Sequence record: PV464738.1
Length of the DNA: 64,000 nucleotides
Reading direction: 5' to 3' (one strand)
From: Escherichia phage RCIP0319
The notes under the pieces are model-generated. The model had not been told where the DNA came from and did not search any database. It was given only the letters and a program-made list of their open reading frames with translations. Each line of letters begins with the position of its first letter. Within the stretch, counting starts at the first letter, position 1. Positions 30,620 to 31,724 of the stretch are shown here, piece after piece. Made by a program: the position numbers and the translations under genes.

Positions 30620-31209
30620 TCAAACTCCTTATTCATCACTTGTTCCAGCGCATAGGCATACGCCTGATCAGTCGATTTGATAAACGTTCCGTTGTACATC
30701 ACACCTTTACGGTCCTTGATGTCTTCATAGGCGGCTTGAGCGCAATCAGACAGTCGAAGTCCATAATCATGCGCTACGCCGGAAAGATAATCGACTGCGG
30801 CCATGATGGTGACATCAATATCCATGCTTTGATTTTTAGCGATGGCATCACCAAGCCGTCCGAGGGTCTTTGCCAAGCGGAGGATAAAGGAATGAGGGTG
30901 AGCGCCTTTGTCAGCGCAACCGCCGCCGTTGATGTCTTCGATTTTTGCACCGTTTTGCGCGGCAAGAATAGTCAACACAACAAGGCAATCGCCGATGTCG
31001 TCCTTGATTGCAGCTTGTAAATCACAGATGGCCTGCTCTGTATATCCGATTTCAGGGTCAAAGAACACAAGGTCATGTAATTGATCAACGTGGTCGGTCA
31101 ACTCCCCAAACTCGCTAATAAGCTTCGGGTATTGGTCCTTAAGGTCGCAGCCTTGGATGATGTTACGGTCAGAAGCCCACTGGCGAATGTTTGCATAAAT
31201 CTGGTTCAT
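30616..31209 (-). CDS. MazG-like nucleoside triphosphate pyrophosphohydrolase (putative)
   Basis: 197 aa; LISEFGELTDHV and IGDCLVVLTILA resemble the EExxE / D-containing helices of all-alpha NTP pyrophosphatases. Confidence 0.45.
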   Translation of the reverse strand: MNQIYANIRQWASDRNIIQGCDLKDQYPKLISEFGELTDHVDQLHDLVFFDPEIGYTEQAICDLQAAIKDDIGDCLVVLTILAAQNGAKIEDINGGGCADKGAHPHSFILRLAKTLGRLGDAIAKNQSMDIDVTIMAAVDYLSGVAHDYGLRLSDCAQAAYEDIKDRKGVMYNGTFIKSTDQAYAYALEQVMNKEFE

Positions 31210-31724
31210 TTATTTTCCTTTGATGCATTGAATTGATCGATTTTAATTTTAGCCTGATTATAAGTATCAATCAAGCTATTGACCTTCTCTTTTAATCGGT
31301 TTGTTTCTGCGGCGAACTGAACAAGAAATCTGACATCATCTTCTGATAGTCCACAGTTTCCTTCTGGGATAGAGAGGCGTCCAGTGGTCGCAGAGTCGGG
31401 CACACTCCTGAGTAAATCACGGGAGCAGCTGAGTTGCTCGCGCAGCTTGATATTCCCAGACTTGTAACGAGCAATAGTGTCATCAGCAACCAGTTGCGCT
31501 TCCTGGCGACCCTTCTCATATGCCGATGCCGATTCAACCTGTAAAGATGCAATTTGCTCTTCGAGTGCATTTATCTTGTCCTTACGCTCATTAAGCGATG
31601 TCAGATATTGATTATCCTTGGCCAGTGATGCGTTGGTTTGCTGAAGGTCTTCAACGTATGATCCAGCGGCGAACGCGCCAACAAGGGCCAGAATCTTCAG
31701 AAGCGGTACAATTCTTTCTATCAT
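31206..31724 (-). CDS. Rz: i-spanin (Rz-like)
   Basis: 172 aa; N-terminal TM helix, coiled-coil periplasmic region, pattern similar to lambda Rz; contains an embedded +1-frame lipoprotein ORF. Confidence 0.55.
   Translation of the reverse strand: MIERIVPLLKILALVGAFAAGSYVEDLQQTNASLAKDNQYLTSLNERKDKINALEEQIASLQVESASAYEKGRQEAQLVADDTIARYKSGNIKLREQLSCSRDLLRSVPDSATTGRLSIPEGNCGLSEDDVRFLVQFAAETNRLKEKVNSLIDTYNQAKIKIDQFNASKENK
31292..31519 (-). CDS. Rz1: o-spanin (Rz1-like lipoprotein) embedded in the Rz reading frame
   Basis: Embedded ORF; from the internal Met: MRRVARKRNWLLMTLLLVTSLGISSC, a basic n-region, hydrophobic core and lipobox-like ISSC, then a Pro-containing short mature peptide; start assigned at that Met. 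Confidence 0.5.
   Translation of the reverse strand: MRRVARKRNWLLMTLLLVTSLGISSCASNSAAPVIYSGVCPTLRPLDASLSQKETVDYQKMMSDFLFSSPQKQTD

Follow-up and report, generated by a model that had tools for sequence, protein, structure and literature searches.

Positions 31206 to 31724 (minus strand) of the DNA that we analysed, a stretch of 64,000 nucleotides from Escherichia phage RCIP0319 (PV464738.1) that we refer to as the window, very probably encode an embedded two-component spanin of the kind known from lambda Rz/Rz1, the gene of the o-spanin being nested in that of the i-spanin. Judged by the criteria of Kongari et al. (2018), this identification is supported by every bioinformatic feature of embedded two-component spanins that could be tested. 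An embedded Rz/Rz1 pair had been proposed for this locus in the original prediction, whose coordinates prove exact for an ORF of 172 aa; the proposal itself is upheld by the anatomy of the two proteins, by the constraint detected on two reading frames, by a match to PHROG 1327, by homologues that reside in lysis cassettes and by a link to lambda Rz.

The spanin pair is already known, since it figures in a published spanin catalogue and in GenBank annotations. Table S1 of Kongari et al. (2018; PMC6139136) lists an embedded pair in phage ECML-117 (JX128258), with the i-spanin at 45375-45894 and an o-spanin of 75 aa at 45461-45689, and in that study both proteins form singleton families. The i-spanin of the window is 98.8% identical to the ECML-117 i-spanin printed there. 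In GenBank the annotation of the pair reads i-spanin and o-spanin for phage Mansfield and for the BASEL phages Bas98-101 (MK903282, PQ850631), and RefSeq gives the outer gene the name 'Rz-like spanin'. ECML-117, Mansfield and Bas98-101 carry the same genes, in the same position with respect to MazG and ligase, with the same nested ORF and lipobox, and differ from the window by point substitutions only. The phage carrying the pair is a Wifcevirus, a PB1-like E. coli myophage (97.6% identity to vB_EcoM_WFH over 4 kb), and identity of the i-spanin across 28 Wifcevirus records ranges from 96.5 to 99.4%. Our literature search found no experimental report on the lysis genes of Wifcevirus, and the genome announcement of Mansfield is silent on them. 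The matter is therefore mainly one of correct annotation, with the pair supplying the outer-membrane step of the predicted lysis system of the phage. In many GenBank records of the genus both genes are labelled 'hypothetical', or the nested gene is omitted.

Anatomy of the two spanin proteins

The outer gene (31206..31724, minus strand) encodes a 172-aa protein in which a membrane helix is followed by CC1, a linker and CC2, as in lambda Rz according to Kongari et al. (PMC6139136). Its hydrophobicity peaks over residues 5-19, IVPLLKILALVGAFA, with a Kyte-Doolittle mean of 2.33 for these 15 residues, and the hydropathy maximum coincides with an AlphaFold2 helix in a single predicted N-terminal transmembrane helix covering codons 5-23 (31656..31712, minus strand; IVPLLKILALVGAFAAGSY). 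The AlphaFold2 model, computed from an input of six sequences, has a mean pLDDT of 80, with block means of 86-94 for residues 31-90, and consists of a helix at residues 5-106, a non-helical linker at 107-127 and a second helix at 128-170, that is, a mostly alpha-helical periplasmic domain made of two helices and a linker. The N-terminal membrane segment and the coiled-coil character attributed to this protein from a first reading of the sequence are both recovered here. Two of its cysteines, Cys100 and Cys124, are invariant in alignment A2 and, together with the second Cys of the o-spanin, are the periplasmic cysteines available for intermolecular disulfides. In PHROG the protein falls into family 1327 ('Rz-like spanin', 5e-26); no meaningful hit to Pfam or NCBIfam was obtained with either ORF.

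The o-spanin gene lies wholly inside the i-spanin gene, in its +1 frame, and starts 154 nt into it. Its long form of 92 aa begins at an ATG at 31570 (31292..31570, minus strand), and an alternative start at Met18 (31519, minus strand) gives a form of 75 aa, so that, in fractions of the i-spanin length, the o-spanin covers 0.30-0.83 with the first start and 0.39-0.83 with the second; the span given for ECML-117 in Table S4 of Kongari et al. is 0.395-0.834 (PMC6139136). The nested ORF reads MHSKSKLHLYRLNRHRH-MRRVARKRNWLLMTLLLVTSLGISS-C-ASNSAAPVIYSGVCPTLRPLDASLSQKETVDYQKMMSDFLFSSPQKQTD and displays a basic n-region, a hydrophobic core (LLMTLLLVTSLG) and a lipobox, I-S-S-C with Ala at +2 (31442..31453, minus strand), the cysteine of which is Cys43 in the 92-aa form and Cys26 in the 75-aa form. 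The lipoprotein call, a signal peptidase II signal with a residue other than Asp at +2, was made with an in-house regular expression and a hydropathy rule. The Ala at +2 would be compatible with sorting to the outer membrane. The mature peptide has 50 aa, including 4 Pro and 8 Ser, and a second Cys at +15. Both the lipoprotein-like embedded ORF with its ISSC motif and the short Pro-containing peptide had been anticipated, and they are present as described. At the level of protein families the o-spanin gives weak matches to PHROG 1275/4306 'Rz-like spanin' (E about 3e-3) and no Pfam match.

Conservation of the nested frame

Beyond the genus, a protein search yielded four divergent metagenomic relatives of the i-spanin (L008-L011), with 57-66% identity. 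Their gene order is DUF7307, Pam3_Gp34, i-spanin, MazG-like, ligase, two small genes and a gene on the opposite strand at the position of the endolysin; it is shown in part by L011, a 3.5-kb contig that stops inside the gene after the MazG-like one, and a GH19 match at the endolysin position is recorded for L010 alone. All four contain a nested ORF in the +1 frame, and its lipobox reads ISGC, ISSC or TSSC. The nested +1 ORF, the lipobox Cys and the second Cys are also present in Yersinia phage PY54, Pantoea phage LIET2 and Burkholderia phage Mica, to which the identity of the outer protein is about 29-33% (the LIET2 match spanning 41% of the protein). The o-spanins share the motif C-P-x-[LM]-x-P-[LV]-D...D-[YF]-Q..M..FLF, and their lipobox Cys and second Cys are invariant in nine of nine aligned sequences, lambda Rz1 included.

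An ORF nested in this way could in principle be an untranslated by-product of the codons of the outer gene, with the 172-aa protein acting alone or with an unlinked partner. To address chance, we rewrote the outer gene with synonymous codons 20,000 times for each of two codon models, a null that retains the outer amino-acid sequence, itself possibly shaped by the overlap. Open stretches of at least 92 codons appeared in an alternative frame in 12-16% of the recodings, so the length of the nested ORF is by itself uninformative; this, together with the weakness of its family matches, is what speaks for a by-product. However, a lipoprotein-like nested ORF arose in only 0.02-0.045% of the recodings, and the ORF, its lipobox Cys, its second Cys and the motif have been kept in phages whose outer proteins retain no more than about 29-33% identity, while a conserved AAGGA and ATG precede the nested ORF. 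Synonymous change in the outer frame, moreover, drops by half within the overlap: when five Wifcevirus-like lineages are aligned by codons, synonymous differences at codons for identical residues amount to 53% outside the overlap versus 25% between Met18 and the nested stop (Fisher P = 3e-18, a value that is overstated because the compared pairs share phylogeny and are not independent, so that the effect size alone is to be trusted). Such a halving is the signature that would be expected from selection on a second frame. We give the by-product explanation practically no credence and regard the nested ORF as very probably a translated o-spanin gene.

A looser lipoprotein heuristic, run over the six frames of the window, flagged seven of the 769 open stretches that have 40 codons or more, and among these seven we judge the nested ORF to be the sole credible lipoprotein candidate. 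Four other flagged stretches are without a hydrophobic core, one is a minus-strand ORF in the tail-fibre region, and one has an N-terminus of the nucleotide-binding type (G-G-G-L-A-G-L). A unimolecular spanin of the T1 gp11 type was also considered and rejected: neither protein of the pair has both of the features that it combines, and no ORF in the whole window couples a lipobox to a C-terminal membrane helix.

Databases differ on where the o-spanin starts, GenBank giving 92 aa and Kongari et al. 75 aa. Both starts may also be in use, and we rate initiation at Met18 (31519), instead of the first ATG (31570), at slightly under an even chance. Synonymous differences in the outer frame drop from 50% before Met18 to 25% after it, the aligned o-spanins of PY54 and Mica begin six columns downstream, with no counterpart of the Met1-Met17 extension, and the signal peptide that results from a Met18 start, 25 residues, is of a typical size. 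Yet no Shine-Dalgarno motif precedes Met18, whereas one does precede the first ATG, an AAGGA (31579..31583, minus strand) placed 8 nt upstream, in five of five Wifcevirus-like lineages; the arrangement matches that of the lambda and Mica Rz1 starts, and this ATG has been kept despite variation of the overlapping residues of the outer frame (N, Y, H, D). The PY54 Rz1 start, too, has a similar Shine-Dalgarno-like motif and spacing, as in lambda and Mica. The mature o-spanin is identical whichever start is used.

Relationship to lambda Rz/Rz1 and proposed mechanism

When 1.84 billion representative proteins were searched with a profile, 234 clusters came up at E <= 1e-3, nearly all of 150-200 aa, and 55 of the 65 best of these 234 clusters match PF03245, 'Bacteriophage Rz lysis protein'. 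For the match between lambda Rz and an i-spanin profile of 66 sequences, hhalign gives 94% probability (E = 9e-8), and in one reading of this alignment Cys100 would stand opposite Cys99 of lambda Rz. Homology to PF03245 members is thus detectable with profiles, transitively. The i-spanin itself does not match the Pfam PF03245 model even at E <= 0.1, falling short of the gathering threshold, and a shallow profile of six i-spanin sequences gives 0.6% probability against lambda Rz in hhalign; because of these two results, the protein is, with respect to the lambda Rz family, a divergent relative that is reached transitively only. A sequence search of solved structures found generic coiled coils alone, at E >= 0.1. 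As for the o-spanin, its alignment to lambda Rz1 puts both Cys, one Pro and one Asp in register, and blastp connects the window to PY54 at 6e-18 and PY54 to lambda Rz1 at 1e-7, E-values that are optimistic, as the database had 13 sequences and composition correction was switched off.

The pair resembles lambda Rz/Rz1 in its +1 nested gene, in the succession of membrane helix, helix, linker and helix in the i-spanin, in the two cysteines of the o-spanin, that of the lipobox and the second one, which fall in register, and in a Shine-Dalgarno motif that precedes the nested gene at a similar distance. It differs in that its i-spanin has no direct sequence match to lambda Rz/PF03245, in that its mature o-spanin has 50 instead of 40 residues and is poorer in Pro (4/50 vs 10/40), and in that it is not part of a holin-endolysin cassette and shows no obvious sign of late control. 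The closest annotated homologues outside the genus are PY54 ORF63 and Mica gp32/gp31, with i-spanin identities of about 29% and 33%, respectively; their o-spanins show 40-50% local identity, are likewise embedded in the +1 frame and share the motif. Unlike the pair described here, however, they belong to canonical lysis cassettes in temperate or siphovirus-type genomes, the gene order being holin, endolysin and spanin gene in PY54, and holin, SAR endolysin and i-/o-spanin (annotated so) in Mica.

If the pair works according to the lambda model, the i-spanin would be held in the inner membrane by its N-terminal helix and would extend its bipartite helical domain into the periplasm, while the nested +1 gene would give rise to a prolipoprotein that signal peptidase II would cut before the Cys, which would then be lipidated. 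[quoted passage not shown] Destruction of the peptidoglycan by holin and endolysin would leave the complexes free to move and to change conformation, and they would then fuse the inner and outer membranes, removing the last barrier to the release of virions. In this model it is intact peptidoglycan that holds spanins inactive. Co-expression with replication genes should hence be tolerated, since the spanins would be harmless until the wall is degraded. Spanin pairs are cognate-specific.

Genomic context and expression

The spanin pair sits between a gp34-like gene and a MazG-like gene, away from the endolysin, as had been noted at the outset. The upstream gene, earlier called 'SSB-like', encodes a protein of the Pam3_Gp34 family (PF23977). 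Downstream lies the MazG-like pyrophosphatase gene (30616..31209, minus strand), whose ATG overlaps the i-spanin stop in an ATGA, followed by the DNA ligase gene (29642..30619), which overlaps the MazG-like gene in turn. The endolysin is a glycoside hydrolase of family 19 (28027..28671, plus strand; Pfam PF00182 9e-8; PHROG 181 'endolysin' 8e-70) with no N-terminal hydrophobic (SAR) segment. Presumed to act before the spanins as their partner in lysis, it is separated from the spanin pair by 2,535 nt and encoded on the opposite strand, in agreement with the distance of about 2.5 kb first reported.

A terminator-like GC-rich hairpin with a T-run (31733..31764, minus strand; stem 31764-31743) stands between the gp34-like gene and the start of the i-spanin. 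It is annotated as a terminator in Mansfield, and a GC-rich hairpin occupies the same intergenic position in 10 of 10 lineages examined, with stem sequences that differ. We found no recognisable promoter-like site between the hairpin and the i-spanin start codon. The next terminator-like hairpin on that strand comes after the ligase gene, and as such hairpins flank this segment on both sides, before the i-spanin and after the ligase, we infer that the pair heads a short spanin-MazG-ligase unit. The ATGA overlap between i-spanin and MazG would likely reflect a shared operon with translational coupling.

No holin was identified for this phage. The 70-aa gene that adjoins the endolysin (28697..28909, minus strand) has a borderline hydrophobic stretch only, which accords with the initial statement that no convincing holin lies beside the endolysin. 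It shares PHROG 5165 with an 83-aa endolysin-adjacent gene of Pbunavirus, which in phage 14-1 is gp48 and is reported as its own transcription unit by Putzeys et al. (2024), who mapped promoters and terminators in this Pbunavirus (PMC10914365). In phage Cisa, the label 'putative holin' sits on the gp34-like gene and looks erroneous.

The same genomic position in PB1-like phages

We surveyed the slot downstream of the gp34-like gene in 79 viral contigs carrying that gene and in two annotated genomes, with in-house heuristic calls. Embedded pairs occupy it in Wifcevirus and in three contigs (L017, L024 and L034), overlapped pairs in two others (L025 and L035), and a separated pair in Xanthomonas phage Carpasina, whose o-spanin matches PHROG 11951 at 1e-20. 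Besides their spanins, L024 and L034 encode a holin-like small membrane protein in the slot. The Pbunavirus slot is filled by a membrane protein of 201 aa that weakly matches the gene-transfer-agent holin family (PF11351, E = 0.018), and in some PB1-like lineages the slot holds no membrane protein. Searching the window by tblastn with the Pbunavirus slot protein and the Carpasina spanins gave no homologue. Because many related contigs carry spanin pairs at the same position, the placement of spanins near MazG and ligase is recurrent in this phage group and not an oddity of one genome.

The location among replication genes would also be explained if the pair were an envelope complex foreign to lysis, such as a superinfection exclusion system or an anchor for the replication machinery, and it is true that the pair lies next to MazG and DNA ligase, with which it is probably transcribed, and not next to the endolysin. 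Nevertheless, the homologues in PY54 and Mica end canonical lysis cassettes, the nearest relatives belong to the lambda Rz family, and the window offers no other spanin candidate, no ORF with both a lipobox and a C-terminal membrane helix having been found in it. Moreover, related phages have non-homologous or distantly related spanin pairs at this same position, and the presence of unrelated or distant pairs in one slot therefore points to a function that all these phages need. We consider a role outside lysis highly improbable and hold to that of a spanin. Distance from the other lysis genes has a precedent in T4, where the spanin genes pseT.3/pseT.2 are unlinked to endolysin and holin, although they have a separated architecture and unrelated sequences; in T4-like genomes lysis genes are unclustered, according to Kongari et al. 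(PMC6139136).

A broader proposal, which we put forward tentatively and lean somewhat against, is that the slot between the gp34-like gene with its hairpin and the MazG-ligase genes is an ancestral, exchangeable lysis locus of the PB1-like group. If this were true, spanins in these phages would be made together with the replication enzymes and not late. Among the spanin families of Kongari et al. (2018), none is reported to combine embedded members with members of another architecture (PMC6139136). Should some of the spanins in this slot turn out to be homologous across architectures, they would form a natural series for the evolution of a nested spanin gene, and a slot that hosts all three spanin architectures may provide material for studying the origin of overlapping genes.

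Holin candidates and the spanin position

The window has two small genes in the interval from ligase to endolysin, and we considered both as possible holins. The first, 28697..28909 (-), encodes a 70-aa protein (PHROG 5165) with a single, borderline hydrophobic stretch, VARAAIVGVIGMAGYYF; its homologue in phage 14-1, gp48, is reported to form a transcription unit of its own. The second, 28924..29466 (-), encodes a 180-aa protein with a strong signal-like sequence at its N-terminus, ending in TASA. Neither is persuasive as a holin. No convincing holin was found elsewhere in the window. 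A 175-aa ORF at 55084..55611 (+) has five predicted transmembrane segments.

Relatives place other genes at or beside the position of the window's spanins. In two metagenomic PB1-like contigs, a gene for an 84-85-aa protein that is predicted to have one or two membrane segments (L024 4663-4917; L034 5284-5541) is directly followed by an embedded spanin pair, the whole occupying the same position as the spanins of the window. Such an arrangement looks like a partial lysis cassette of holin plus spanin. Pbunavirus-like genomes carry there the gene for a 201-aa protein, gp48 in Pbunavirus antinowhere (L003 6792-7397), equivalent to gp51 of 14-1; the comparison sequences L016, L022, L026, L029-L033, L036 and L038 belong to the same set. 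This protein (PHROG 1544, function unknown) combines a Gly-rich N-terminus with a coiled-coil central part and hydrophobic segments at the C-terminal end, and weakly matches PF11351 (E = 0.018), a three-transmembrane holin family from gene transfer agents. We regard it as a candidate lysis protein.

Lysis labels on neighbouring genes

The gene that the original prediction called SSB-like, 31782..32642 (-), encodes a Pam3_Gp34-family protein (PF23977) whose acidic C-terminal tail ends in an invariant Phe (...DAEEF) and resembles in sequence the C-terminal tips found in single-stranded-DNA-binding proteins. Its counterpart in Pseudomonas phage Cisa (PV464114; L093 340-1236) is labelled 'putative holin', probably wrongly, because the window orthologue was unflagged in our hydropathy scan, although the scan covered ORFs of 40-260 aa, a range that excludes this 286-aa protein. 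ORF85 of phage JJ01, 621 nt long and adjoining the SNF2 helicase, is labelled 'U-spanin' (PMC9583000). Its position and size agree with the DUF7307 (Pam3 gp33-like) gene, found at 32702..33259 (-) in the window and at L003 5130-5750 in antinowhere. It seems that a mis-annotation has been propagated here, since the antinowhere orthologue has neither a hydrophobic segment nor a lipobox.

Start and expression of the spanin genes

Databases disagree on the length of the o-spanin: the GenBank entries (Mansfield, Bas101) give 92 aa, whereas Kongari et al., 2018, give 75 aa. The start at issue is either the first ATG (31570), favoured by a Shine-Dalgarno motif and conservation of the ATG, or Met18 (31519), favoured by synonymous-site constraint, both on the minus strand; a dual start is conceivable.

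The intergenic gap downstream of the gp34-like gene holds a GC-rich hairpin (31733-31764, minus strand), of a kind usually followed by a T-run. An equivalent hairpin, with varying stem sequences, is present in all PB1-like lineages examined (L008-L011, L003, L004, L017, L025 and L035). The next start codon follows after only ~20-25 nt, with no promoter-like site between the two, and the hairpin may act as a transcriptional attenuator ahead of the spanin-MazG-ligase unit.
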